This document shows, in pieces, positions 468-59,646 of a stretch of 64,000 bases of DNA. Source of the DNA: Eledone cirrhosa. Taxonomy: Eukaryota. Below the pieces are notes generated by a model. The model did no database searches. It worked only from the letters and a program-made list of their open reading frames with translations, and was not told where the DNA came from. The position numbers and the translations under genes were made by a program. The stretch lies in NCBI GenBank assembly GCA_964016885.1, contig OZ024745.1, positions 34,596,001 to 34,660,000 of the forward strand, in the 5' to 3' direction. The stretch's first letter is position 1. Each line of letters starts with the position of its first letter.

Positions 468-469
<2 letters not shown>

Positions 470-523
470 AAGGAATTGTGGCCAGGAACCAGATGGACCA
501 TAACGCACCAGAGTACTCAATAC
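468..523 (-). mobile_element. 3' tail fragment of the GGAACCAGATGGACCATAACGCACCAGAGTACTCAATAC family
   Basis: Near-identical to segments at 18093-18132, 30819-30857 and 31033-31071. Abuts (TA)n. Confidence 0.8.
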
Positions 524-835
524 GCCAGAACAAAGGAGAGACACACAAAAAAAAGAATCCCCAGTCACTGAAGAGGTCACAGAATGTGTGACGAAAGAAC
601 TTTGACAATATATGAACAACCGTCCGGTTGTGGAACCAACCAACCAACCAACAGGAAATTTATAAAAAAAATATTTTTAATTAAAAAAAAATTCTTTTTA
701 ATTTATAATAAATTGGAGTGAAAGCAACTGGTGCGTGTGTTTCTTATTGGTAACATGACCCTCCCAAAGTATAACAATATCGGTTTCAACACACGTTTTC
801 AGATAAAGAATCTTGCTAAACAAATTCAGAAACGA
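524..835 (+). mobile_element. Penelope-like 3' end, same family as 40289-41196
   Basis: Contains an HHR. 755-821 (ATGACCCTCCCAAAGTATAACAATAT...CTTGCTAAAC) matches the reverse complement of 40289-40356. 695-740 recurs at 38095-38139. Confidence 0.75.
564..606 (+). ncRNA. Minimal type I hammerhead ribozyme
   Basis: Stem I GTCA/TGAC, core CTGAAGA (568-574), stem II GTCACA/TGTGAC, GAAA (593-596), very short stem III (G-AA-C), predicted cleavage after CUU at 602. Confidence 0.75.
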
Positions 836-9991: not shown

Positions 9992-10740
9992 AGGCGGTGG
10001 ACTGTCAGTATCGGGAGAAGGTCGGATGCCATGCTTTGCAGCATGGAGGTACGGCCCTTTACGGTTTGAATGAATTCAAATCCCACCGAGGTTAATTTTG
10101 CCTTCATCCTTACGGGGTCAATAACATTAAGCACCAGTAATTACCTGGAATCATTGCTGGCCTTGTGCCAAAAGTAGAAACAATTGCTACTGCTAGGGCG
10201 TTGAATTTGTAGTATTGATAGAGCGTCAGACATGTTTTGTGGCATATAGTTACGTCCCTTTACGTTTCGAATTCAAATCCCGCAGAGGTTAGTTTTGCTT
10301 TCATCCTTCCAGTGTCGATAAAATAAAGTACCAGTAACGTACTGGTGTCGATTTAATCGACTTTTCCCTCTCCACAAATTGTTGACTTTGTACCTAGATC
10401 AGAAACCATTATTTCCGAGGTTAACTTTGCCTTTCATCCTTACGGGGTCGATAAAATAAAATACCAGTAATGCACTGGGTAATTGCTGGCCTTGTGCCAT
10501 AAAGTAGAAACAATTATTATTCTAACTATTAGGGAGATGGAATGGCAGTACCGGTAGAGCGTCGGACAAAATGTTGTGCGGTATTTAGTACTTGCTGCTA
10601 TGTTCTGGTTTCAAATCCCACCGAGATGAACTTTGATTTTCATCCTTCCAGGATAAAGTACCAGTTAAGTAATGTGATCGATATCATCGATTCTCCTCCT
10701 CCTACCAAATTTCTGGCCTTGTGCCAATGTTAGAAATATT
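9992..10740 (+). mobile_element. Cluster of four tRNA-derived SINE copies (family A)
   Basis: Repeated TTCAAATCC B-box-like motif and central domain TTTGCCTTTCATCCTT.CGGGGTCGATAAAATAAAGTACCAG. Tail GGCCTTGTGCCAAAAGTAGAAAC. Confidence 0.85.
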
Positions 10741-18072: not shown

Positions 18073-18076
<4 letters not shown>

Positions 18077-18205
18077 CTAAGGAAGTGTGGTAAGGAACCA
18101 GATGGACCATAACGCACCAGAGTACTCAATACTTATGGTAGTAGAGTGGGTAATATGAAAATGTTTGCGTTATGGCCCATCTGGTTCCTTACCACACTTC
18201 CTTAG

Positions 18206-18210
<5 letters not shown>
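18073..18210. mobile_element. Short element with ~45-bp terminal inverted repeats in (TA)n
   Basis: AACTAAGGAAGTGTGGTAAGGAACCAGATGGACCATAACGCA ... TGCGTTATGGCCCATCTGGTTCCTTACCACACTTCCTTAGTT. Same family as 30800-31201. Confidence 0.85.
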
Positions 18211-22914: not shown

Positions 22915-23440
22915 TATAGTCGTAGAGGGGCCATTGTCACATACGGCGAGTCTTGGACACATTAAACCTGGCGGGACCCATCTCCTCTCCAGGTTGGAAC
23001 AAAGCCGATATCTTTCAAAGAAGGAGAGATAGATTGGGAGATAGGAAGTGAGAAAGGGATAAAGAAAAAAAAAGAAACCCAAGTAGCGAACTGCTATTTT
23101 TTATCCACCGCTTAATGATGAAAGACAAAGTTAACCTCAGCGGGATTTGAAGTCAGAGGGCTCAGAGAGCAGATATAAAACAGCAAAGCAATCTAGCCGG
23201 CGTTCTAACGTCTTTGCCAATTTGCCACCTAGCTCAATAAAATATTTAAAATAATTGTTTCTACTTTTGGCACAAGGCCAGCGAATAACCAGTGCATTAC
23301 TGGTACTTTATTTTATCGACCCCGTAAGGATGAAAGGTAAAGTTAACCTCGACGGGATTTAAACTCAGATCGTAAAGGGACGTAACTATGGTGGAAAGCA
23401 TGGTGTCCGACCCTCTACCAATACTGCCAATTCACCTACG
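22915..23440 (-). mobile_element. Family A SINE with module D (22915-23230) and a young family A copy (23252-23440)
   Basis: Reverse complement of the family A central domain occurs twice. Module D at 22915-23040. Confidence 0.8.
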
Positions 23441-23551
23441 CCATTGCCAATTCACCTTTTAAAATAATAACAGTTAAGCACTGGTGTTGATTGAACCGAT
23501 TAAACCTTCCCCCAGTCACCAACATGTAGTTCTATGCCAATGTTGATTCAA

Positions 23552-24902
23552 TATTACTATAACCATCACTATTACTATAACCATCACTATTACTATAACC
23601 ATCACTATTGCTATAGACATCACTATTACTATAACCATCACTATTACTATAACCATCACTATTGCTATAGACATCACTATTACTATAACCATCACTATTA
23701 CTATAACCATCACTATTGCTATAGACATCACTATTGCTATAACCATCACTATTACTATAACCATCACTATTACTATAACCATCACTATTACTATAACCAT
23801 CACTATTACTATAACCATCACTATTACGATAACCATCACTATTGCTATAGACATCACTATTACTATAACCATCACTATTACGATAACCATCACTATTGCT
23901 ATAGACATCACTATTACTATAACCATCACTATTACTATAACCATCACTATTACTATAACCATCACTATTACTATAACCATCACTATTACTATAACCATCA
24001 CTATTGCTATAGACATCACTATTACTATAACCATCACTATTACTATAACCATCACTATTACTATAACCATCACTATTGCTATAGACATCACTATTACTAT
24101 AACCATATTACTATAACCATCACTATTACTATAACCATCACTATTACTATAACCATCACTATTGCTATAGACATCACTATTACTATAACCATCACTATTA
24201 CTATAACCATCACTATTACTATAACCATCACTATTACTATAACCATCACTATTACTATAGACATCACTATTACTATAACCATCACTATTACTATAACCAT
24301 CACTATTTCTATAACCATCACTATTACTATAACCATCACTATTACTATAACCATCACTATTACTATAGACATCACTATTACTATAACCATCACTATTACT
24401 ATAACCATCACTATTACTATAGACATCACTATTACTATAACCATCACTATTACTATAACCATCACTATTGCTATAGACATCACTATTACTATAACCATCA
24501 CTATTACTATAACCATCACTATTACTATAGACATCACTATTACTATAACCATCACTATTACTATAACCATCACTATTACTATAACCATCACTATTACTAT
24601 AGACATCACTATTACTATAACCATCACTATTACTATAACCATCACTATTACTATAACCATCACTATTGCTATAGACATCACTATTACTATAACCATCACT
24701 ATTACTATAACCATCACTATTACTATAGACATCACTATTACTATAGACATCACTATTACTATAACCATCACTATTACTATAACCATCACTATTACTATAA
24801 CCATCACTATTACTATAACCATCACTATTACTATAACCATCACTATTACTATAACCATCACTATTACTATAACCATCACTATTACTATAGACATCACTAT
24901 TG
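23552..24902. repeat. 18-bp minisatellite, ~75 units (TATTACTATAACCATCAC and variants)
   Basis: Direct tandem array with variants TATTGCTATAGACATCAC and TATTACTATAGACATCAC. One 4-nt deletion near 24106. Confidence 0.97.
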
Positions 24903-25009
24903 CCGCAGCTTTACTTATTTATCATACGGCTTTAAAGAATTAAATCCTGCCTGTTTGCTGTATAAGCAAATTGGAAATATTTCATTTTATTTTTTTCTGC
25001 CTTTTCAAT

Positions 25010-27901: not shown

Positions 27902-28110
27902 TTTTATATGGAAAAGACGCTTACAGGGCGAAAAGTATTTCATTCATATGAAATCATCAGGAATGTCCTAGAGCGTCCTGATGATTTCATACGAACGAAA
28001 CAGATTTAGTCCTGTAAAAGTATTTTCTATATAAAATATGCTTTCGTCTCAACTAACGTATTAAGTACATTATATAACTGGTTTCCTTTCGACCCCCTTT
28101 GGTAAACCAT
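27902..28110. mobile_element. Older imperfect twin-hammerhead palindrome (arms 27902-28036) with tail
   Basis: Plus strand CTGATGA-TTTCATACGAAC-GAAA-CAG-ATTTAGTC-CTG-TA (27978-28016), with a mirror core on the minus strand. Homologous to 29213-29344. Stem I is degraded. Confidence 0.8.
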
Positions 28111-28184: not shown

Positions 28185-28805
28185 ATGTGCATATGTTTCT
28201 ATGTGTGTATGTATGTGTGTGAAGAAAAGATTTGAAACTATTAGGGCTTGTAAGAAAGGATTAGTTAAGTAGGGTTTTTAAGTAATCGGCCCACTCAATC
28301 ACTGACAATGTTATTAATACACTTATAAACCTTAAAGATTTGTTGGAATTCGAAGAAATATTTATTGCATAAAAAAATGTTTCTTCAGATTTCAACAAAA
28401 TTTGCCAAGAGTTTCCAAGAACCCTGTTCATATTAAATTACTCCGTAGAATAATACTTGGAACCTATGTACTATACTGGGTTACACATCTCTTTAATTTT
28501 AACACAAAAGAGCTTAAAATAAATAAATATTAAAACCACTTCCGGCCAGCATGGTATAGCAAGCCACATCGGACACTTAAATAGTTCCTTTATTTTCCTT
28601 AGTCGAAGAGATACTAATCTTGAAATATCAGGTCATATGAATAAATTAAGGTGAAAAAGAACAAACCCTACTTTTTGTCCTTTTTGCGTTTGAATTTTTC
28701 TCTGACCAAAACCTGCAGTCGTGGCTTTCCAACTTCGAATTCTCTATATATAATATATATATATATAATATATAAGAACAAAAGATGGTTAAAAGAGTTC
28801 CATGT

Positions 28806-28874
28806 ATTTTATTATGCGCATTTCAAAAACAAATATCATCATGCAATAATATTTGTGTTTTCATCAGATAAAAC
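28806..28874 (-). ncRNA. Type I hammerhead ribozyme (mirror of 28995-29063)
   Basis: Reverse complement of the plus-strand HHR. The single difference lies in the stem II loop region. Confidence 0.82.
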
Positions 28875-28994
28875 AGGAAGACATGATATGAAGGTTAAAA
28901 AACACTTGTGGATAGTTCAGTTTTAAATCAACATATGTTGATTTAAAACTGAACTATCCACAAGTGTTTTTTAACCTTCATATCATGTCTTCCT

Positions 28995-29063
28995 GTTTTA
29001 TCTGATGAAAACACAAATATTATTGCATGATTATATTTGTTTTTGAAATGCGCATAATAAAAT
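28995..29063 (+). ncRNA. Type I hammerhead ribozyme with palindromic stem III
   Basis: Stem I GTTTTAT/ATAAAAT, CTGATGA (29002-29008), stem II AAACACAAATAT/ATATTTGTTTTT (11 of 12 pairs), GAAA (29045-29048), palindromic TGCGCA, predicted cleavage after AUA at 29056. Confidence 0.85.
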
Positions 29064-29225
29064 ACATGGAACTCTTTTAACCATCTTTTGTTCTTATATA
29101 TTATGTATACTCCAGTCCTACAAACTGTAGAGTGCTTCTTATCCGATATCTGCATTGCTTTATTGTACTACAATAAAACTCACCTCCTACATATATATAT
29201 ATATATATATAGTTTTAATATAGAA

Positions 29226-29278
29226 GAGATTCTACAGGACTAGAACTGTTTCATTCATTAGAAATCATCAGGAATCTC
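29226..29278 (-). ncRNA. Type I hammerhead ribozyme (mirror of 29279-29331)
   Basis: Exact reverse complement of the plus-strand HHR. Confidence 0.85.
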
Positions 29279-29331
29279 GAGATTCCTGATGATTTCTAAT
29301 GAATGAAACAGTTCTAGTCCTGTAGAATCTC
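29279..29331 (+). ncRNA. Type I hammerhead ribozyme
   Basis: Stem I GAGATTC/GAATCTC (7 bp), CTGATGA (29286-29292), stem II TTC/GAA with a U-U at the base and TAAT loop, GAAA (29305-29308), stem III CAG/CTG, predicted cleavage after GUA at 29324. Confidence 0.87.
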
Positions 29332-29412
29332 TTCTATATTAAAATTGTTATACTCTGCTATGTATTGAGTACCTTACTTACTGTGGTTACCTCCGATTCA
29401 ACCCGGAATAAC

Positions 29413-29440
<28 letters not shown>

Positions 29441-29444
<4 letters not shown>

Positions 29445-29552
29445 CAGATTAAAGTTTAAGCAAAGAAACAGGATCTTCTGAAACTCAGAAGTTTCAGAAG
29501 ATCCTGTTAAGAGTGAAAGCAGCGATTCTTTGCTTAAACTTTAATCTGTTAT
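29441..29552. repeat. Short asymmetric fold-back next to (TA)n
   Basis: Outer arms ATAACAGATTAAAGTTTAAGCAAAGAA/TTCTTTGCTTAAACTTTAATCTGTTAT. Inner hairpin ACAGGATCTTCTGAAACT/AGTTTCAGAAGATCCTGT. About 18 extra nt in the right arm. Confidence 0.88.
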
Positions 29553-29671
29553 TTTCATAAATATTTGCTCTAGGGTTCTTATATATTTGATATATATTTA
29601 TCCTTATCGAGCCCCCTTTGGATTTTTGTTTTCACATTTATTATTATTAATACATATATATATATATATAC

Positions 29672-30159: not shown

Positions 30160-30721
30160 TGGTGGCTGCCAACTCGTTTTCGAGTACGGCCACTACTTTA
30201 TATCCATGTAGGAAAACCCCTACCGATGCGCTGAACGAGTGTGACTTTTTAGTCCAGCCAGCGACTTGAAAACTCTGGTACACACACTACACTTGTGACA
30301 ATTATTGACACATAGAGCTGGGCCCATGGTACCATGTGACGACAAGTGCAGAGAGATCTCCAGATATAAAGCAATGCCTGTGCCGTGAAGATTTTATAGT
30401 GAGCAAAGGCACTGCACAAAGCCAGTCCCACTCTCTTAACCAAGATTATATTTACCAAAAAAAAGAACAAGTCAACATCATTGGATACCAACAGGGTTGC
30501 AGGTGTTATATCAGAGTTTTCCTTGTCCTAGAATTCTGCCTTGACAAAGGCTAAGGGGTCAGCTCTCCCGGTGATTTTGGATGGCCATTGACTCTTAAGA
30601 GCTCCTTTGCCCTTTGATAGGTTTTGTTTTTAGTCCTGCAGGATGTCCAAAGTCACCCTCCTCACCAAGAAACCTTCGTGGCGTTGCCAGTTTAGTCGCC
30701 AACGACCCGACCATGAGACAG
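30159..30721 (-). mobile_element. ~570-bp non-autonomous retroelement, copy 1
   Basis: Highly similar to 41783-42352 and 42385-42994. Shared left end, variable right end. Sits in (TA)n. Confidence 0.88.
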
Positions 30722-30799: not shown

Positions 30800-30995
30800 A
30801 ACGAAGGAGGTATGGTAAGGAACCAGATGGACCATAACGCACCAGAGTACTCAATACTTAGGGTAGTAGAGTGGGTAATAGGAAATAGTTTAACCCCTAC
30901 GGCAGAGCTCAAGCCGTTTCGACAGCTATTTCTGAATCCAGAAATAGCCGTCGAAACGGCTTGAGCTCTGCCGTCGGGGTTAAACATTTTCCTAT
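30800..30995. mobile_element. Half-hammerhead palindrome folded at stem II (arms ~30878-30995) with tail
   Basis: Central hairpin GAC(A/G)GCTATTTCTG-AATC-CAGAAATAGCCGTC, then GAAA-CGGC-TTGAGCTCT-GCCG-TC-GGGG. No CTGANGA at the expected position. Confidence 0.85.
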
Positions 30996-31011: not shown

Positions 31012-31196
31012 ATAACGAAGGAAATGTGGTAAAGAACCAAATGGACCATAACGCACCAAAGTACTCAATACTTAGGGTAGTAGAGTGGGTAATAGGAACA
31101 AGTAGGACCCCGACGGCTGAGCTCAAGCCGTTTCGACGGCTATTCAGAATTAGCCGTGGAAACGGCTTGAGCTCAGCCGTCGGGGTCCTACTTGTT

Positions 31197-31201
<5 letters not shown>
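31012..31201. mobile_element. Second half-hammerhead palindrome folded at stem II (arms 31092-31201) with tail
   Basis: ACGGCTA-TTCAGAAT-TAGCCGT, then GAAA-CGGCT-TGAGCTC-AGCCG-TC-GGGG. Same tail as 30800 but a different loop and flank. Confidence 0.85.
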
Positions 31202-38022: not shown

Positions 38023-38151
38023 TGTGAGTGTGTGTGTGTGTGAGGATTGAGAGGGACGAGGCAGTATGGTTACTGATATATATATAATTTATAATTTTTA
38101 ATTTATAATAAATTGGAGTGAAAACACTGCTGCGTGTGTATCTACACATAT

Positions 38152-40253: not shown

Positions 40254-40289
<36 letters not shown>

Positions 40290-40480
40290 GTTTTGCAAGG
40301 TTTTTGATATGAAATCGTGTGTCGAAACAAATATTGTTATACTTGGGGAGGGTCATATTTGTGTAATATTGCCAGAATTAATAACAGAACACACTCACTG
40401 TTTGGTTGGTTTTCGCTTTTCGCTTCTGTGTCTTTTATATCGGTAATCTAATTTATTCGGTCCTCAATGTTCGTATAGTA

Positions 40481-40684
40481 CTATACGAACATGCCAGACA
40501 ACAACACGACGGTAACATAGACAACATAGAAATTAGAATAATATCTAAACATAGAAATGACCCAGCAGATAGGCAAATCAGAGAGGCCAGTGAAATAGAA
40601 CTTAGAAGCCCAAGGCTAAACAGAAAGAATGAATGGAATAACAACAACACCCAAACAAACAACACTGACCTAAGAGAAGTATAA
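40481..40684 (+). pseudogene. C-terminal fragment of PLE GIY-YIG endonuclease
   Basis: LYEHARQQH...IEIRIISKHRNDPADRQIREASEIELRSPRLNRKNEW fits the H...H / R.I.EA..I....P.LN pattern of Penelope endonucleases. Confidence 0.8.
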
Positions 40685-40945
40685 ATAAATAAATAGATAA
40701 ATAAATAAATAAATACATACACAAGCACAATAACAACAAACACATATAAACACACACTAGTAAAGATAGAATACATTAACCAATACACAGTCACCCAATC
40801 ACGAACACACATCAAACAAAACACTTTACACACACGCAAACGCATGCGCAAAGAAGACAAAATAAAATAAACAAATAAATAAATATATAAACAGACTAAA
40901 TAAAGATGGCGTAGAAAATACAATGCAACGGGAGGAAACAATAGC

Positions 40946-40987
40946 ACCACTGACGATGTTGCAGATGTGCAACGAAAGAACTTTGAT
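40946..40987 (+). ncRNA. Minimal type I hammerhead ribozyme
   Basis: CTGACGA (40950-40956), stem II GTTGCA/TGCAAC, GAAA-GAAC-TT, stem I ACCA/TGAT (one mismatch). Stem II covaries with the 564-606 copy. Confidence 0.75.
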
Positions 40988-41569
40988 AAACTATATATAT
41001 GTGTTTGTGTCTATATTGTATCTGTATTATTTTTTACCGTTGGTCAGTCAATGGCAACATTGAGGACCGAATAAATTAGATTACCGATATAAAAGACACA
41101 GAAGCGAAAAGCGAAAACCAACCAAACAGTGAGTGTGTTCTGTTATTAATTCTGGCAATATTACACAAATATCACCCTCCCCAAGTATAACAATATATAT
41201 ATATACATCTTTGAAACAATACGTTACAAAGCCGGGTATTTGAATTACAGGTACAATACACCCAACAGGATTCCACAGAGTTTCTGTCTACTCAATTTCA
41301 CACAAAAGTGTCGACCGCAGACAATAGTAAATTGAATTGACCAAGAGGCCACGCAGCAAGATCGATCCCAAGGTATCATGTTTACGAAAGAACATCTTAA
41401 CCACCCAGACAGGCTTGCATCTACAATATTCTCGTATGAGAGATTTTTTTATGGTGGCAGAAATAGTAATAGAAAATGTTAGTGACAAACCATTAGTATA
41501 TCTAAAAAGTATAAAGTCTGTCTCGCGCCCGGAAGTTTAGCAGGCCGTACATGCGTACATAAAGAAGAA

Positions 41570-41759
41570 GTTCTGCTGAAAAGTTCATAGGCTTACCAAG
41601 ATATTTTCATGGAATGACCAAACGAGGTTTTTCAACATAGACTCTGGGAAGAAGCAGTGCATATTGATAAGAAGAATTGAAATTAATGCATGCAAGATTT
41701 CACATCTCTAGCAACACTCTTTCATAGTCAGCCTATGAACTTTTCAGCCTTCTCTCGTA
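41570..41759. mobile_element. mariner-like MITE
   Basis: TIRs GCTGAAAAGTTCATAGGCT/AGCCTATGAACTTTTCAGC, ending CTCGTA. Second copy at 50305-50451 and a fragment at ~43300-43365. Confidence 0.75.
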
Positions 41760-41782
41760 CATACATGCCTACACATACATAC

Positions 41783-42352
41783 ATGGTGGCTGCCAACTCG
41801 TTTTCGAGTACGGCCACTACTTTATATCCATGTAGGAAAACCCCTACCGATGCGCTGAACGAGTGTGACTTTTTAGTCCAGCCAGCGACTTGAAAACTCT
41901 GGTACAAACACTACACTTGTGACAATTATTGACACACAGTGCTGGGCCCATGGTACCATGTGACGACAAGTGCAGAGAGATCTCCAGATATAAAGCAATG
42001 CCTGTGCCGTGAAGCTTTTATAGTGAGCAAAGGCACTGCACAAAGCCAGTCCCACTCTCTTAACCAAGATGATATTTACCAAAAAGAAGAACAAGTCAAC
42101 ATCATTGGATACCATCAGGCTTGCAGGTGTTATATCAGAGTTTTCCTTGTCCTAGAATTCTGCCTTGACAAAGGCTAAGGAGTCATCTCTCCCGGTGATT
42201 TTGGATGGCCATTGACTCTTAAGAGCTCCTTTGCCCTTTGACAGGTTTTGTTTTTAGTCCTGCAGGATGTCCAAAGTCACCCTCCTCACCAAGAAACCTT
42301 GGTGGGGTTGCCAGTTTAGTCGCCAACGACCCGACCACGAGACAGGTTGTAC
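41783..42352 (-). mobile_element. ~570-bp non-autonomous retroelement, copy 2
   Basis: Near-identical to copies 1 and 3. Flanked by (ACAT)n-like sequence. Confidence 0.88.
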
Positions 42353-42384
42353 ATACATACATACATACATACATACATACATAC

Positions 42385-42994
42385 ATGGTGGCTGCCAACT
42401 CGTTTTCGAGTACGGCCACTACTTTATATCCATGTAGGAAAACCCCTACCGATGCGCTGAACGAGTGTGATTTTTTAGTCCAGCCAGCGACCTGAAAACT
42501 CTGGTACAAACACTACACCTGTGACAATTATTGACACATAGTGCTGGGCCCTTGGTACGATGTGACGACAAGTGCAGAGAGATCTCCAGATATAAAGCAA
42601 TGCCTGTGCCGTGAAGCTTTTATAGTGAGCAAAGGCACTGCACAAAGCCAGTCCCACTCTCTTAACCAAGATGATATTTACCAAAAAGAAGTACAAGTCA
42701 ACATCATTGGATACCATCAAAGTTGCAGGTGTTATATCAGAGTTTTCCTTCTCCTAGAATTCTGCCTTGACAAAGGCTAAGGGGTCATCTCTCCCGGTGA
42801 TTTTGGATGGCCATTGACTCTTAAGAGCTCCTTTGCCCTTTGACAGGTTTTGTTTTTAATCCTTCAGGATGTCCAAAGTCACCCTCCTCACCAAGAAACC
42901 TTGGTGGGTTTGCCAGTTTAGTCGCCAACGACCCGACCATGAGACAGGTTGTACTGGGATACATGTTACCAGTAGCACCAACTGGTGACCTGAC
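42385..42994 (-). mobile_element. ~610-bp non-autonomous retroelement, copy 3 (longest)
   Basis: Head-to-tail with copy 2 across (ACAT)n. Extends ~42 nt further at the right end. Confidence 0.88.
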
Positions 42995-44059: not shown

Positions 44060-44335
44060 AGGCGCAGTGGTAAAGGTGTTGGACTTACGATCATAATGTC
44101 GTGAGTTCGGTTCCTGGCCCGCGTTGTGTGTTGTGTTCTTGAGCAAAATACTTCATTTTAGGTTGCTCCAGTATACTCAGTTAAAAATGAATACCAGCTT
44201 AGCTAGAGGTTTAACCCTGCGATGGACTAGCATCTTGTCAAGAGTGCGGGGTAGAGTCTTATACTCAGTCACTTCACACCACAGAAAACGGGATAGGTAC
44301 GGCCTGCTAAACTTCCGGGCTCGAGACAGATATAC
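44060..44335 (+). mobile_element. tRNA-derived CORE-like SINE
   Basis: GGCGCAGTGGTAAAGGTGTTGGACTTACGATC...GAGTTCGGTTCC...CTTGAGCAAAATACTT. Confidence 0.7.
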
Positions 44336-47300
44336 TACTGGTTTGTGAGATAGAGGTCACTAACATTTTCTATTACTATGTCTGCCACCATAAAAAAAAT
44401 CTTTCATACGAGAATATTGTAGAAGCATGTCTGGGTGGTTAAGATGTTCTTTAGTAAACATGATACCTTGGGATCGATCTTGTTGCGTGGCCTCTTGGTC
44501 AAGTCAATTTACTATTGTCTGCGGTCGACACTTTTGTGTGAAATTGAGTAGACAGAAACTCTGTGGAATCCTGTTGGGTGTATTGTACCTGTAATTCAAA
44601 TACCCGGCTTTGTCACGTAGTGTTTCAAACTAATTCTGACTGAGAATATTACATTAAGAGTACACGTGACTGTGGAATGACTATTCAATCACCTACATGT
44701 TAATTCCTGAGCCAAGCCTTCAGCTGTTCGAAAGATTATCTGATCATTTTCGCAACCGACGGAGCAGTCATCATCATATGACAATTACCACTATCATGGC
44801 TGCTTCTGTCGTTACTACTATTGCTGCCACTAATATAACTACAACAGATGCTCAAGCTTCTCTTCATCTTGTACTGCTTACCTCTTCTAATTACTACATC
44901 TACCACTAATATGGTATAGATAAATTTCTGCTCTTGGTTTCTTGCTTCCTTCTTCTCTTTCCCCCCATCGCTAACGAGATATTTAGGAATATATATATAT
45001 GTGTGTGTGTGTGTGTATGCGTGTGTGTGGGTGTGTGTGTGTATGTATATATATAAATTATTTATATTAAGTCCATGCTGTCTCTGACAGAAAGCTGACT
45101 ATTCATGTGGTTTTATATTCTCTCTACATTCGGGTTATTTCACAACTTCTCAGACAGTTTCTTCTTCTTCTTAATTACCAAATATAAGTTTCATACCATT
45201 TACACAGCGACTTCCATTCGTGGTGTTGAAGTAATTGAGTGTAATGTTAGACAATTGTCTTTGCTATTCGATAACTGTTCAACTGTTCATAGGTGCTTTT
45301 AATTTTTATCATCATCACAAGTTGTAAGTTAATGAAGAGAGTAAATATGTATTAACTATGTACTTTATCTTATATTGTCTGCATTCCAGGTTCATTAGTT
45401 CGAATCCCGCCAGCGGCATCTTTAAACGATAATATAATAAACCAGTAATGCTTCGTTTCTTGTCCATCCATTATAATGTCTAACTCTGGTGTTATCTACT
45501 AAGATAATTACTGCTTTAATGGTTTTAAAACTTAAACTGTTTCACATCTCATTACACGTCAGTAACTTCATCACACCTCCTCACACATCATTACACTTTA
45601 GTAGCTCCATCACACCTCATTACACTTCAGTAACCTACCCCAACAATTGCAGTAAATCACATGGCAGTAGTACATGCCACAACTATAAAACAGAGTTACA
45701 CCACAAAATTCAATGACACAACTACATGGCATAATAGAAACAATTTAATGACACAACAACACTACATGACATAAATCCACTATATATCTCAACTATATGT
45801 CACAACTACATATGTTCTACATAACACACAAATACACTACATCACACAGCTAAACTATATCACCCAACTACTTGACACTTATACGAACAAAATTCTATCT
45901 TTCTTGTGATTCAAGGCCCCAGGTGTATCATATATTTCTTTATCAATATATATTTACAACATGAATCAGCTTGGAGTCATGTGTGCTAAATATAATTACT
46001 TCTACTCGCGTATATATATTGTTTTATATAAAAATATTTAAAATCAAAATTTTAAAATGCATCAAAAAGTACATCAGATGAAATATCTATTAATAAAACA
46101 TTATTATATATCATTTCTTTCTTTTTGTGGTGATAAACCGTATGTTAATGTCTAACAGGAAGATTGTGAATACATTTCTAGTAAAATCAGTGGAGATACT
46201 ACATGATATCTGGTTAGTAAACGTATGTAACTGAGTGGACTCAAGTATGACTTCGCAGCAATGGGGTCTTGGGTTCGATTCTAATGCGTGATATTACAAC
46301 CTCAGAACGGCACAAGTCGTATGAGCGAAGATTTCTAGACAAAAGTTGGTTGGAAGCCCTTTGGATGGGCTGTAGCTGTAATATAAAGGACGGACATTGT
46401 TAAAAACTGTCGTGTTAAATCTTTCTGAGAACTGCGTTAAGGTTAGTGTACACATATCCGTAGAATGCTTAGCCACTTCCATGTTAATGTCAGAAGCAGA
46501 TTATTCCGTTGATCAAACAACAACACGCATCGTCGAAGACAAAAGAGTTCCATCCAAACCCATATGCGTGTCCGGGCAAGTGTATCAATATGGCTGGTCT
46601 ACGCCGCTGTCTGCTTGGTTAAGCAGATAAATGTAACTACTTGTCAATACCATGCCTCTGTTTTTATTCCAGTAATTTTACTTTCTTATTCACATCATGC
46701 ATTGTATCATAAATGTCCAAACGTTGCTTGCATAATTTATCCGAATCAAATATAATTAAGAAAAGGAAGAGACTCATCAATACTATCTAATCTTAAACCT
46801 CTTAGAATCTGAAACCTAATATATAAAGGTTTCATAATTTACATTCTGTTTATTGAATCTTCATAAATTAGATCAATTTCTGATAATAATATTAAAGTTT
46901 CGGTAGGAGTTTGGTTATATCATGTACTTCTACTTCACGAATAACGTGAGGGTAATTTTGAGGGCTATTACAGATAAATATATTTGTATAAGTAATTTGC
47001 CTTATATTATCGGAATTTTTTCAAAATATAATTACTAAATAGTAATGGAAAATGTTATTCCATTATTGACCAGACTTGTATAAACACATAAAAGGTCAAT
47101 ACACTATGATATACAAAAATAACGATGGTAGTGACAATGAAGACAATGATGGCAATAATAATGATGATGGTTTTAAGAAAGACGTGAAAGATGTCTTAGA
47201 ATTTCAATATATATATATGTTCAATACTTCCTACTATTACCGATATTTTCCAGATAAGAAAACTGAATACATTGTCAGTTTTAACTTGTTGATTCACTGC

Positions 47301-52059: not shown

Positions 52060-52851
52060 TCTTCACGTTCAGAGTTCCAATCTCACGGATGTCAATTTTG
52101 CATTTCAACCTTACAGTGTCGAGAAATTAATGTACCACTGGTGTCAATTTAATCGACTGAGCTCTTCCCTTCAAATTGCTGGCCTTGTACCAAAACGTAG
52201 ATACAATCATTTTGAGGGCTTTGGGTAGGCAGGGTCATTAAAACGCCAGATAGAATGATTTGCAGTATTCATTCTTGTTGCTTGCGCTCTGAGTCCAAAT
52301 CCCGCCAATTTCATCCTTGCGAGGTTGATTAAAAGTTTCAGTAAAATACTTACGTCGATATATTCGACATTCTCCTCATCATGAATTGCTGGCCATGTAA
52401 TAATTCTAGAAAAAAAGTATTATTAGTAGTTATACTACTAATAATTGTTTCTTCTTTTGGCACAAGGCCAGCAATTACCCAGTGTATTATTGGTACTTTA
52501 TTTTATCGACCCCGTAAGGATGAAAGGCAAAGTTAACTTCGGCGGGATTTGAACTCAGATCATAAAAAGCCGTAACTCTATGCGTCAAAGCATGGCGTCC
52601 GAACTCTCTACCGATACTGCCAATCCACCACTAATAATACTTTCTATCTTTCACTAAGGGGGGTGGACGCTATGCTTTGCAGCAAAGAGTTACGCTATGC
52701 TTTGCAGCAAAGAGTTACGGCCCTTTATAGTCTGAGTTCAAAAATCACCGAGGTTAACTTTGCCTTTCATCCTTACGCGGTTGATAAAATAAAGTACCAG
52801 TAATACACTAGGATAATTGCTGGCCTTGTGCCAAAAGTATAAACAATTATT
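52060..52851. mobile_element. Family A SINE cluster including an inverted pair (52441-52631 minus, 52661-52851 plus)
   Basis: Near-identical family A sequences in opposite orientation, ~30 bp apart. Confidence 0.88.
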
Positions 52852-53944
52852 AGTAGTTGTACTGATGTCGTTTTTTAAAGTCAGACGCGTTTTGTCACAC
52901 TCTTACATATCGCTGATTTCTCAGGTGAAAAACTATCTAAGTAAAAACATTTTTTAAAGCAGAATCTTTAAATAAAGAAGTAGGAATTTAATTATTTGCA
53001 TAAATACTTCCCAGTTTGGAGTTAAAACACTTAGGTTAACGGAGACTTTTTCTTTTACTTTCCTACCACTCGTAAACATCAGCACTTAAAAACGCACTCA
53101 CCCTTCTTGCTAAAAAAAAAGGAAAAGAAAAGACTAATCAAAATAGAATGAACAAAAACAAATACGTTTTTACAAATAGGAGATATAGAAAAAGCCAACA
53201 AATTCAATTCCATTTCTCTGCAGAATACATTTATTTGGCAAGAACCATGTGATTTACTGAAAGAAAATAATTTTCAACAAGTTAAATTACTCCAGTAATG
53301 ATAACAATAAGTACAACAACACACAGACTCAAGTTCTATCAAGCGAGGGATGACATACATGAAGAGTGCTTTATAATTTTCTGTTTTGAAATATTCCTCA
53401 TATTAACTTTTATTTATATTTTTGTTTGTGTTGTTCTCGTTCGGATTTTGTTCAAATTTCTGTAGAACACAATTTGTCTTTTTTTTTTGTCAGTCACATT
53501 TAAAACATAAGTAGAATTTATATATTTTGAAATTATGTTAACTTAGTCTAAGCGGCTACAACGCAGATTTGGGTTTGAAATAGTCGAACAAGTTGGACAT
53601 ATGAACCCACAGAAACGGAATAAAGTCCATTTTTGTTTTCTAGGGGTTTATCAGTCCAACGTTTTTCGACTAGCAGCTTCAATAATCTAACATACTTTAG
53701 AAAATTCAAATTCGCCCAAAGCTTCAGAAAACGAATGTTCCTTTGTTTACAATTTATATAACATATATAATTTACAAACTAAACAAATCAATAAAGATTT
53801 CATGGGGTCCTGAACTGGCTGTCATATATAGGATGTGTATATGTCGTGTCTGGGACATTTAAACCAAGCAGAGCCCATACGCCTCCTGATCTGAACATAT
53901 CCAAAGTCAGAACAAGTGAGAAAGAGATAGAGAAAAGATCAACC

Positions 53945-56262
53945 TTAGTGCTATATTGGTACTTTATTCATCGACTTCTAAAGGATGAAAGCCAAAATTG
54001 ACCTCAGTGGAATTTGACCTCAGAGCGTAGACAACCACAATATCCAGTAATATTGGAGTGAGGGTAAAATCGATTAAGTCGACCCAATACTCAACAGGTA
54101 TTTTAGCGGCCCCGAAGAATGAAACAAATATCGCCTCGGGCGGGATTTCAACACAGAGTGTAAAGGATTATAAATAAATAATTATTTCTTTGTTAGCCAC
54201 TATATATAAATAATTGTTTCTACTTTTGGCACAAGGTCACAAGGCCAGCAATTATCCCAGTACATTACTGGTACTTTATTTTATCGACCCCGTAAGGATG
54301 AAAGGCAAAGTTAACCTCAGCGGGATTTGAACTCAGACCGTAAAGTGGCGTAACTATGCTAGCGTAACTCTTTGCTGCAAAGCATGGCGTCCGACCCTCT
54401 ACCGATACTGCCAATCTACTGCCAATCCAAAAATAATGCAAGGTATTTTATCCGACGCTCAAACGATTTTGTCAATCCGCAGTCTGTTATGTTATATATG
54501 TCCACACATATGCACACAGACACCTATTCATATCACATGTGTATATATATATAGAGAGAGAGGGGGAAGAAAGCGTAAAGATGTTGACATGTTTGTATAT
54601 ATTTATACACATATATATACACAGATGTGTGTGTGATGGAAACAAATAAACACACTTACTTATGTGTGTATGACTACTTGATTATAGTTGCATTTGTATG
54701 TGCCAGTGTAGTTTTTAGCCATTACTCAATAGTTTATAAACTAATTTAAATTATAAAGTTAATTAATTATTTAAACTCTTATTTCATGTAATACCAAATT
54801 ATAATTTTCTTTTCCTTTAATGTTTATAAAGATAATAATTGTTTCTACTTTAGGCACAAGGCCAGCAATTACCCAGTGCATTACTGGTACTTTATTTTAT
54901 CGACCCCGTAAGGATGAAAGGCGAAGTCAACCTCGGCGGGATTTGAACTCAGATCGTAAAGTGACGTAACTATGCTGGAAAGCATGGCGTCCGACCCGCT
55001 ACCGATACTGCCAATCCACCATAACGATAATAATAATTAATAATAATATTAAGTAGTCTTATTTTTATTGTGTACTGTCGTTATATTACCAGGCGTCACT
55101 CTGTGTGACTTGGGATAGGTGTTATTATTGTTTGTGGTATTATTGAGTGCCGAAGGACGATCCATTGGTACAATCGTTACATCGTGGCGAAAAAGTGCTG
55201 GTATTTGTTCTGGCTCTCTGCATTGAAATTCTGCTGAGTTCCACTTTGTCTTTAATCCTTCCGTAGCTGATAAAATAAAGTGCATGAATTATAAAACATT
55301 ATTATTGGAAGTATCGGTAGAGGGTCGGACGCCATGCTTTCTAGCATAGTTACGTCCCTTTACGGTCTGAGTTCAAATCCCACCGAGGTTGACTTCGCCT
55401 TTCATCCTTACGGGGTCGATAAAATAAAGTACCAGTAATACACTGGGTAATTGCTGGCCTTGTGCCAAAAGTAGAAACAATTATTAAGTGTTCTGGAACG
55501 AGAGAGTGAAGCATATAATGTCTTGCAGTATTTAGTTCTGTCCCTTTACGTTCACACTTCAAATCTTGTCGATTTTGACTTTTCAGCCTTCCTAGATTGA
55601 TAAAAGCACAAGTCGGGTATAGGTGTCGATTTCATCAACTAACCCTTCTCGAAATGTGATCTTATTCCTATGTTGAATATACTAATTCTAGCATAAGGAT
55701 GGTAATTTGGTGGAAGGTGAAAGTTGATAGTATCGACCTCAATACTTTAGTACTCTATCGACTCCAGAAGGATGAATAGCAAATTTGACATCGGTGGGAT
55801 TTGAATTCAGAACACAACCATTTCCACCGCCTTCGTGTTTGATACAATAAGTATTGTTATTAAATGCGTTTATTAGTTAAGGGACATAATGCTTTGATGT
55901 ATTTAGTCACACCTTTTTACATTTTAATTTGAGATTATGTCTTCTTCAAGTTCCCGATGAAATAAAATATCAGTCAAGTACTAGAGTCGTTTTAATTGAC
56001 TTTTCCCTCCAAACATTGCTTGTCTTTTACCTAAATTAGAAATCATTATGATGGATGTTGAATGGTAGTATCGGTAGAGCGTCAGACGTTTTGTCGCAAA
56101 TAGTTATGGCCTTTTACGTTATGAGTTCATATACCGCCGAGGTTTGCCTTTCATCCTTATGAGGTCGACAAAATAAAGTACCAGTAACACACTGGAGTCG
56201 ATTTAATCGCCTATCCTTTCCCCAAAAATTGTTGGCCTTGTGACTAAATCAGAAAGCATTAT
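53945..56262. mobile_element. Dense family A SINE cluster (young copies 54209-54420 minus, 54836-55021 minus, 55310-55485 plus, and older copies)
   Basis: Repeated central domain and tail in both orientations. Confidence 0.85.
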
Positions 56263-57044
56263 TATGAAGGGTGTTAGTGACTAGAATTGTTGGAGTGCCA
56301 CAAAAAATGCTCAAAAAGTTATGCCTCTTTAAGTTCAGAGTTCGATTTGTGTCAAATCAACTTTACCTTTTATTCACCTGTTGTCAAATATTGAAGTAGC
56401 GTAACTATACCTCTGCCCAACCGCTACTGTATCATGGCCATCGCCACAAATCATATTTCCAGTCACTGTTTAGAAATGTTTTATTAGTAAACATCTTTCT
56501 TTTTGTTTTATTTGATTTTTAATCTTTTTTAACCTCATTAGAAACAAAGCAAAACTAAACAATAAAATGCCTTAATCAATTTTCCAAATTTTAAGTCAAA
56601 CTTATCTAATTGAACATGGAGCATCAAAACAAGAGAAAGAGAAACAAACATAAATTTATTGAATATAAATGAATCAAATTAAATAATTATCTGCCGATTA
56701 TATCATCTCGCTCCCTCCGAACAACAATTTTGATTAAGTTTTATTAAATCAATATATTCTGTATCATTTTAGATTACAGTAAAATATATTTCTTTTGGGT
56801 ATTGCTTAATTACAAATAAATTGGCATTAGATACTACATTCTGCACATAGTATATATACAACACAAAATCTGACTATTGGTAAAGACTTGGGTGAATTTC
56901 ATCAGCTATAGGTAAAATGTAGGAATTGTATGAACAGGAAGTATATTCACCGGATACTATGTAGCTGCGGATGTATATTGAACACGATGTACTTTTATAT
57001 TAAAATACAAACAAATAAATTATGTATGTCTGTGAGAGTGTGTA

Positions 57045-58380: not shown

Positions 58381-59442
58381 ATTGAGATGGGGGGTCAGAA
58401 AATGAGAGAAGAAAACGTTTTGCGGTGAGGTTACAGTTGATTACATCGTCACACTCTTTTAATTTCCTTAATTTCCCTGGTTCTTTTATTGATTCCGGTG
58501 TCATTTAGACTCATAACATAATATGACTCAAATACCATCATCGTCCTTGCTACCAACCCATCGCTGTTCTGCAACTCCACACCCTTTTCGCCAACACTTC
58601 GCCCTCACAAACCCTTAACATTGTTAACTAAGAAACATGATTAATGTTAATAATCTCCCCTTCCCTCCCCAGGCATAACTGTGATTCACCTGCCTAAAGC
58701 TGTCGATAATTATCTCTCTTGTTAGAAACAATCTCTCTTATCTATTTTCTGTCTATCTGAAATATATATTCCTATTGCAAATTCCAACTTATTGTTGTTT
58801 TCTCTTCAGTCTTTATCGGCCCAAAAGTAAAATACTCTGTATCAATCACATTTCTACATTTTCTCATGTCTTATTTAACCCGATGATATTCAGATTCGTT
58901 TGCATCTGGGGTTAAAAGGCTTCATTAGATTTATTCTGGTTCTCTATGCTCTGAATTTAAATCTCGCCGAAGTTACCTTTGTCTTTCATCCTTTCGATGT
59001 CGATAAATAATATGCTAGTCCAATGGATGAGTGGAATTGTTAAAGATTCGGACAAGATGCTTTGCAATATCTTATCTGAATCTGTATTCTGATTTCAAAT
59101 CTAGCCTCATTCTGCCGGAAGTTGCAACCGGTAGATAGAATTGAAAATGGAAAATCCGATGAAACCATTCTTTCTTTGATCCAATCTAAAAGTTGGCTGC
59201 TTTCCTAATTTTATTTCACATTTACTTCATTATGAAATTTCTATTTTATATTTTCTAGACTTACATTAATCAAATCATTAATTTGTTCATTACTATTAAC
59301 ATCATTTTCGTTGCTGTGTAATAGCAATTATCTTTGAAGTTATGTGTATGTCTGTGTGTGTATGAATTTTAAATATATTTTTTTTATTGTGGAATTGATG
59401 ATAAAATATGTATAACATCAACACTAGTATTATGTAAAGTGA

Positions 59443-59646
59443 GGGGAGTGGATTGGCTGACTCGTTAAAGCGTCGCATATATGCTCAGCAGCATTTGTTC
59501 TGGCTCTTTACTTACTGAGTTCAAATTCCGCTGACGTCAACTTTCCCTTTCGTCCTTCCGAGATTGATAAAATAAAATACTAGGTTTGACATAATCGACA
59601 TCCTCTTTCCCACAAAATTGCTGGCATTGAGCCAAAATTAGAAACC
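59443..59646 (+). mobile_element. Family A SINE (older)
   Basis: GAGTTCAAATTCC B-box, diverged central domain, tail AAATTGCTGGC...AAAATTAGAAAC. Confidence 0.75.

Follow-up and report, generated by a model that had tools for sequence, protein, structure and literature searches.

Insertions of Penelope-like elements (PLEs) have been described as truncated at the 5' end, where an inverted truncated copy is often present, with a tail of 30-40 bp at one end, with hammerheads in the pseudo-LTR (pLTR) and with microsatellites as targets, and the formation of their tandem and inverted structures was named as still to be explained (PMC8557442). For rotifer Penelope elements, junctions with a 15-bp overlap or with palindromes of 18 and 38 bp were read as the result of self-priming, and template jumps were also invoked (PMC3846280). 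A purified PLE protein was shown to cut both target strands and to extend them, with reverse transcription starting at two adjacent sites which delimit the tail; a dimer was predicted, and the steps after initiation were left unvalidated (PMC11167929). Tandem hammerhead repeats have been tied to PLE pLTRs in a preprint (10.64898/2026.07.22.740005). In Octopus vulgaris, recently active Penelope families were listed without mention of palindromes or hammerheads (PMC13282606).

Small-hairpin inverted duplications are known from the ends of L1 insertions (10.1101/2024.12.14.628481, PMC10191854). In snap-back SD-MMEJ, the junction is composed of a tiny primer repeat on one side, a short templated inverted insert and a microhomology across the join, and its junctions gave repeated hints of snap-back priming between neighbouring nucleotides (PMC2943611). 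A literature search, covering sources other than subscription journals and Repbase, found no title on the joining of two cDNAs or of two families in PLEs.

The insertion at 40289-41196

In the window, meaning the whole stretch of 64 kb that was analysed, the insertion at 40289-41196 is almost certainly a young and non-coding copy, truncated at the 5' end, of a PLE that bears a C-terminal GIY-YIG endonuclease; the copy lies in (TA)n as two unequal head-to-head arms (Table 1). The features of EN+ PLEs found here are a C-terminal GIY-YIG endonuclease, a pLTR with the 3' UTR and the ORF start, a type I hammerhead motif in the pLTR, an inverted 5'-truncated copy adjoining the 5' end, a tail at one end (41 nt, left arm) and a microsatellite or AT-rich target. 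For PLEs, an inverted truncated copy, a palindrome at the junction, a tail on one side, a hammerhead and a microsatellite target have all been published before.

Table 1. Coordinates of the insertion and of the other head-to-head insertions in the window
Feature	Position	Strand	Remark
Left (TA)n target tract	40254-40289	.	
41-nt tail, inverted arm only; element sequence covering roughly codons 10-22 at the start of the ORF	40290-40330	-	homologous to related copy at 755-834
ORF start, 22 codons from MTLPKY, at pLTR 3' end	40291-40356	-	codon comparison with copy at 755
Short inverted arm, 182 nt, 5'-truncated, without hammerhead	40290-40471	-	
5-nt junction microhomology, AACAT on the minus strand	40467-40471	-	
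26-bp palindrome at the 5' truncation point	40467-40492	.	central GTAC probably native (Val-Leu codons); left half otherwise mirrored
PLE-type GIY-YIG endonuclease, C-terminal 67 codons plus stop	40481-40684	+	
3' untranslated region, A/C-rich	40685-40945	+	presumed from its place after the stop codon and before the hammerhead
Minimal type I hammerhead motif	40946-40987	+	core motifs; change on both sides in 3/12 pairs versus copy at 568 (two sequences)
Direct arm 3' part, duplicated in the inverted arm; begins with second AACAT; ends without tail	41056-41196	+	
Right (TA)n target tract	41193-41205	.	first 4 bases (ATAT) common to element
Near-perfect 350-bp mirror, no spacer, in (TA)n	28760-29109		hammerhead per arm (long helix II); 81-nt one-sided tail; region to 29190
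Perfect 132-bp mirror, no spacer	29213-29344		hammerhead; 69-nt tail; region to 29413
Older mirror related to 29213-29344	27902-28036		flanks decayed; one-sided extension of at least 34 nt; region to 28110
Mirror with 4-nt loop	29444-29553		18-nt one-arm deletion at 2-nt (TT) microhomology; 27-nt tail; region to 29582
Adjacent mirrors of one family	30801-30995, 31015-31201		77-nt tails each
Head-to-head, arms of about 90 and 41 nt	18076-18206		full tail at both ends; about 1-nt microhomology; no central palindrome
Possible two-family join between two TA tracts	468-834		left 54 nt, inverted 3' end of the 18076/30801/31015 hammerhead family; right, direct 3' end, relative of the 40289-41196 family

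The first-pass annotation had described a perfect palindrome at the truncation point, a switch via AACAT to an inverted copy starting at 41056 and an extension of this copy by about 40 nt at its 3' side, and on all three points it was found to be correct. The palindrome is its own reverse complement with the centre between 40479 and 40480; when the 907-nt element was simulated 3000 times with a Markov model, an arm of at least 13 bp arose once. In minus-strand reading, the left arm comprises 13 nt of the ORF and thereafter the sequence from 41056 onward, and the word common to both sides of the junction is exactly AACAT (40488-40492 and 41056-41060). Since 1.3% of simulated junction pairs in element sequence reach a microhomology of at least 5 nt, and the direct arm contains AACAT five times, this microhomology is suggestive as junction evidence, not overwhelming. 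The inverted arm is identical to the direct arm at 140 of 141 bases (40331-40471 versus 41056-41196) and continues for 41 nt past the match, to 40290, where (TA)n begins, so that it measures 182 nt in total against 717 nt for the direct arm. A target site duplication (TSD), which in EN+ PLEs is often not discernible, is unreadable within the (TA)n tracts which flank the insertion on the left and on the right, and the last four common bases, ATAT, are assignable to either the element or the target. Directly after the right tract, a 340-bp repeat was identified (41210-41550) with a 91% identical inverted partner at 44297-44629.

L1 twin priming gives two segments that derive from one RNA without overlapping and are accompanied by poly(A) and a TSD. 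This type of event was rejected for the locus, since both arms contain the same 141 nt and the insertion has no poly(A).

It had also been claimed that the truncation lies in a GIY-YIG ORF. The ORF is indeed the C-terminal end of such an endonuclease, but only its last 67 codons are left (40481-40681), and the GIY-YIG motif itself was lost by the truncation. Of the C-terminal half, the remnant retains two His together with the conserved Arg, Glu and Asn; in an alignment of 22 rows, His, Arg, Glu and Asn are invariant. A full HMMER scan among 1.84 billion proteins gave 11 matches with E values from 2e-7 to 7e-4, all of them at the C-terminus of the target protein, and two of the 11 matched Pfam GIY-YIG below the cut-off. 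One relative, P0008, has YVDD, a linker of the CxxC type and the endonuclease on one chain; longer relatives (771-1444 aa) have the same domain order and further reverse transcriptase (RT) motifs. Upstream of the endonuclease in these proteins, DKSG, DVKALYPS, GAIG and YVDD were identified, which we take to be PLE-type RT motifs. Over 54 residues, identity between P0015 and the window peptide is 43%. That the peptide is part of an endonuclease-coding PLE, as had been proposed, is supported.

Other searches remained negative. No significant Pfam match was obtained for the remnant peptide, for which a weak match to Int_N (E 0.04-0.07, below the cut-off) was judged to be due to chance, and none of 10 long relatives matched any Pfam family. 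A PDB sequence search with a 14-row alignment gave no match, and a word-index protein search with the 54-aa peptide gave two candidates, neither of which scored. No RT ORF was seen among the 94 ORFs of the window, the RT having been lost from this copy, and no second copy of the endonuclease region was found in the 64 kb.

The relatives retain the CxxC linker and the Cys/His set, of which the window copy has only the two His. By their sequence, the linker and this set point tentatively to the Neptune/Nematis type rather than to Hydra or Naiad. The Hydra clade, defined by the absence of CCHH and by a CxCX5C linker (PMC8557442), was rejected on the basis of these retained residues. Naiad/Chlamys, with an N-terminal endonuclease and without a canonical hammerhead, was rejected because here the endonuclease is followed by the stop codon, the 3' UTR and the hammerhead.

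The homologs were also informative for the palindrome, whose nativeness was judged indirectly, from proteins. Two residues before the first Leu, Ser is present in 20 of the 20 alignable homologs (21 were compared, one of which does not reach the region), and the mirrored DNA encodes Ile here. The left half of the palindrome therefore appears to be foreign to the intact ORF, in agreement with the first-pass annotation. Val immediately precedes the Leu equivalent in six of the 11 closest homologs and in eight of the 20 alignable ones, as it does in the window, so that the central GTAC may be native to the element.

The 41-nt extension is element sequence, since the same stretch is present in the related insertion at 524-834, and it corresponds to the published PLE tail. 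From the ATG at 40356 (minus strand), 22 similar residues are encoded in this element and in the copy at 755, with seven synonymous and three non-synonymous differences (binomial P 0.0007); for the other frames, synonymous to non-synonymous ratios of 1:8 and 0:9 were obtained. These 22 codons appear to be under purifying selection, and on account of this codon conservation the 3' end of the element probably carries the ORF start, with nine codons on the direct arm and 22 with the tail. The lone difference between the arms lies in the ATG of this ORF, which reads ATC on the direct arm (41171-41173). Codon conservation and position suggest that the ORF-start peptide belongs to the same ORF as the endonuclease; with one long relative, P0019, the peptide gave no alignment.

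The hammerhead consists of helix I (4 bp, with one C-A mismatch), CUGACGA, a 6-bp helix II, GAAA and a 2-bp helix III, with a predicted cut after 40983. In comparison to the copy at 568, both sides are changed in three of the 12 pairs, a value reached in 55 of 500 shuffles and based on only two sequences. Rfam gave no match in the whole window at the gathering threshold, nor in the element at E values up to 10; the global fold was no better than shuffles (z 0.70), and neither were single-sequence folds of the hammerheads and tails in six of six cases, and a strict hammerhead scan of the window missed the motif owing to the mismatch in helix I. By its core motifs, which are intact, the hammerhead-like motif is real, and it is a candidate ribozyme. 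It belongs to an endonuclease-coding PLE, as had been noted before, and this link was already stated in PMC8557442 and PMC11167929. A non-LTR retrozyme, made of non-coding tandem repeats with a hammerhead each (10.64898/2026.07.22.740005), was rejected, because a single hammerhead is present here together with a coding remnant.

Further hammerhead-core motifs of other families are located at 196, 18713 (-), 20027 (-) and 57153 (-); of these, 196 and 57153 are mutually related and have (CA)n-rich repeats next to them. Downstream of the hammerhead at 40946-40987, a run at 40992-41000 is TATA-like and a TCAGTC near 41044 is initiator-like. An ending of the short arm near a transcription start was considered but is not supported, since this arrangement is missing from the related copy at 524-834.

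Head-to-head insertions elsewhere in the window

Self-comparison of the window revealed seven further head-to-head insertions, so that about eight are present in 64 kb. Both arms are truncated at the same point in the mirrors at 28760-29109 and 29213-29344, and the latter, like the one at 27902-28036, is truncated just upstream of the hammerhead core. The mirror at 29444-29582 is a small analogue of the insertion at 40289-41196. In the two adjacent mirrors at 30801-30995 and 31015-31201, the centre falls at the expected loop of hammerhead helix II, which suggests that a native hairpin may have set the inversion point. A one-sided extension was found in six of the seven and in the insertion at 40289-41196, with lengths of 27, 41, 69, 77, 77, 81 and at least 34 nt.

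At the tail-less end, three or four alternating T/A bases are shared with the target in five of seven mirror insertions (P 0.0006 with a background of 0.127 per junction), the cases being chosen by eye and 28760 being aligned through a mismatch. With related families merged, the sharing was found in four of five (P about 0.001).

The insertion at 468-834 is, by sequence, a possible head-to-head join of two families. Its left 54 nt are identical to the 18076/30801/31015 family at 51 of 54 positions (18079-18132), 49 of 54 and 48 of 54, and its right part contains the hammerhead at 568 and the ORF start at 755. The two halves are no more similar than shuffles (32 and 200 of 300 scored as high), nor does any TA separate them. 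Two neighbouring insertions followed by a deletion could also have produced this structure, and insertions cluster in TA tracts in the window. A short UTR fragment of the 524-834 family is present at 38087-38147 between TA tracts and ends just before the ORF start.

The first-pass annotation had ascribed the short palindromes to the same mechanism as the main insertion. The other palindromes of the window are mirror insertions, in (TA)n, of 3' ends with hammerheads and look like products of the same integration process, so that a shared process is plausible and partly supported.

Perfect palindromes can arise from amplification or from read chimeras. An artefact of sequencing or assembly by fold-back is nevertheless very improbable for the insertion at 40289-41196, since the one-sided tail encodes the ORF start, the arms differ by one substitution, the (TA)n flanks are different on the two sides, and the same layout recurs in several unrelated families of the window; the tandem and inverted structures of PLEs have been described as a source of trouble for assemblers (PMC8557442).

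Other repeats were identified in the window. A repeat of about 560-600 bp is present in three copies (30161-30721, 41758-42349, 42358-42951) with 96-98% identity, two of them in tandem with (TACA)n between, and represents a young element. A SINE-like family is abundant in both orientations (9993-10736, 23095-23436, 52434-52857, 53947-56263, 58942-59583); its inverted head-to-head pair at 52434-52857, with a small palindrome (52419-52445), is not of the mirror-PLE type. A minisatellite array occupies 23548-24903; its period is about 18 bp, with multiples thereof.

Formation of the head-to-head arms

From the layout of the sequence, which is what was observed directly, we infer an order of events and an enzyme for the snap-back. 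In the main reading, to which a probability of roughly 0.45 is given, two target-primed cDNAs were joined by snap-back synthesis and a 5-nt microhomology. The element protein would nick both target strands, and each nick would prime its own cDNA. The first cDNA would begin at the distal start site, include the tail and stop after about 182 nt; the second would start 41 nt further in, helped by pairing of ATAT with the TA target, and would extend into the endonuclease gene, over about 717 nt. The two would be antisense and thus unable to pair with each other. The long cDNA would then snap back on the native GTAC and be extended by a few bases, by the RT of the element or by a host polymerase such as Pol theta, to give an end reading AACAT, which would anneal to the ATGTT end of the short cDNA, and fill-in and ligation would complete the insertion. 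The anatomy of the junction resembles that of snap-back SD-MMEJ: the insert and the microhomology are seen here, and the native primer repeat is deduced from protein homologs only. The main reading also agrees with the behaviour of the purified PLE protein, for which cutting and extension of both strands, two adjacent initiation sites and a predicted dimer were described (PMC11167929). The recurrence of junction palindromes in rotifer PLEs suggests, by analogy, that they may form during integration (PMC3846280).

Because the tail is present on the inverted arm only, this arm was not copied from the present right arm. The first-pass annotation had proposed that one cDNA folded back and then jumped along its own template. 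In detail, a single cDNA primed at the right end and truncated in the endonuclease gene would fold back, copy 13 nt of itself, use AACAT to jump to 41056 of its own template and run on out through the tail, and the tail of the right arm would subsequently be removed by endonuclease cleavage; in a variant, self-priming would occur on antisense RNA. The observed junction follows directly from such a course; for rotifer Penelopes, template jumps and self-priming with an antisense template had both been put forward (PMC3846280), and an earlier account attributes the tail to the resolution of an intermediate by the endonuclease (PMC8557442). However, the retained template arm has no tail and its end is joined to the target, so that copying would yield (TA)n and not 41 bases of the element. 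In vitro, the tail was explained by two initiation sites and not by trimming (PMC11167929), and a two-family join cannot be made in this way. As the supposed template arm has no tail, an extra step of tail removal or an antisense template would be needed, and this course, the weakest of the mechanisms, is improbable.

A doubtful but serious possibility is a full mirror centred on the native GTAC, with a tail-bearing left arm of about 758 nt and a right arm of 717 nt, formed by fold-back of the first cDNA or by pairing of cDNA ends, from which 568 nt of the left arm were later lost between two AACAT; the 13-bp half would be what survived this deletion. The tail is then explained with no extra step. 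Long perfect palindromes are unstable, which counts for such a loss, and palindrome repair usually removes the centre, which counts against it, as the exact centre of symmetry is kept here with 13 bp on each side. Only one in 141 bases differs between the arms, which leaves little time. Perfect mirrors with one-sided tails are present in the window, and 29444-29553 is a one-arm deletion with microhomology; together with the full mirrors at 28760-29109 and 29213-29344, it demonstrates that both forms occur, which weighs against a join of two cDNAs. Many of the copies of Penelope in rotifers were inactivated by deletions mediated by microhomology (PMC3846280). The two-family join at 468-834 and the short junction palindromes recurring in other species are left unaccounted for by a full mirror.

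Energetics also bear on the snap-back. A terminal hairpin with the 4-6-nt core is unstable, as no structure was predicted and a forced 1-bp hairpin had +3.1 kcal/mol. Two core ends paired with each other gave -4.0 to -5.6 kcal/mol, which is easier and thus fits a full mirror at least as well. A further point against the joining of two cDNAs is that it concerns a single locus whose final sequence is identical to that from a later deletion, and one locus cannot decide between the two.

The join at 468-834 matches a prediction of the two-template process. The TA microhomology at the tail-less ends counts in favour of the joining of two cDNAs; it also fits a fold-back arm whose end anneals to the target, and two of the seven ends are without it. 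Initiation in vitro was found without target homology, unlike the ATAT pairing proposed here (PMC11167929). In an extension of the main reading, less probable than that reading itself, PLE inverted repeats in general would arise when a dimer primes a pair of cDNAs simultaneously, one per target strand and initiation site, and these cDNAs of the same sense would be joined by self-complementary ends or by microhomology made by snap-back, their RNAs possibly coming from different families, as the join at 468-834 suggests.

Comparison with known systems

The locus is an ordinary dead retrotransposon copy of a known class, and every structural feature of it is in print. None of the following is new, all being contained in PMC3846280: the reading of junction palindromes as self-priming, jumps between templates, deletions at microhomologies and a tail on one side. 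The insertion offers a modest mechanistic lead as a clean specimen for how the inverted structures of PLEs form, and a tail on one side only speaks against simple self-copying. Should joins of two families and pairing with TA at tail-less ends prove general across the genome, they would be evidence, at the genome level, for priming from two templates and on two strands. With some eight insertions of this kind in the window of 64 kb, the genome would hold enough junctions to test dimer priming with two RNAs by counting.

Snap-back SD-MMEJ was described for the repair of chromosomal breaks in Drosophila, not for the joining of retroelement cDNA (PMC2943611). L1 twin priming and fold-back duplications are similar in having two primed ends at one site, an inverted 5' segment and joins by microhomology or small hairpins (PMC10191854, 10.1101/2024.12.14.628481).

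Among the PLEs, PAc or Poseidon_Ac of Anolis carolinensis shares with the locus a pLTR hammerhead, an ORF start at the 3' end of the element, a tail between two initiation sites and an AT-rich target; in PAc the ORF starts inside the hammerhead, whereas at this locus about 190 nt separate the predicted cut from the ORF start downstream (PMC11167929). Neptune/Nematis-type EN+ PLEs with C-terminal endonuclease resemble the relatives identified here in the RT, the CX2-5CxxC linker, the GIY-YIG domain with Cys-Cys/His-His followed by the stop, and also in the microsatellite target, with DKS or DKT in the relatives in place of the DKG named there (PMC8557442).

Similar junctions are known from Penelope elements of Adineta vaga. 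Pen2a_Av, Pen2_Av and Pen3a_Av have an inverted truncated pLTR beside the direct copy, with a junction overlap (15 bp) or palindrome (18 and 38 bp), and a one-sided tail, there of 31 bp, and microhomology deletions were also described for this species (PMC3846280). The pLTR of Pen2a contains 12 codons of the ORF start, and 22 with the tail, compared to 9 and 22 here (PMC3846280). In contrast to A. vaga, the target is (TA)n with no discernible TSD, and the family is a different one, with a zinc finger in the linker of its relatives. Since the truncation lies inside the coding region of the endonuclease, the short mirror and the microhomology join are separately readable here as two steps.
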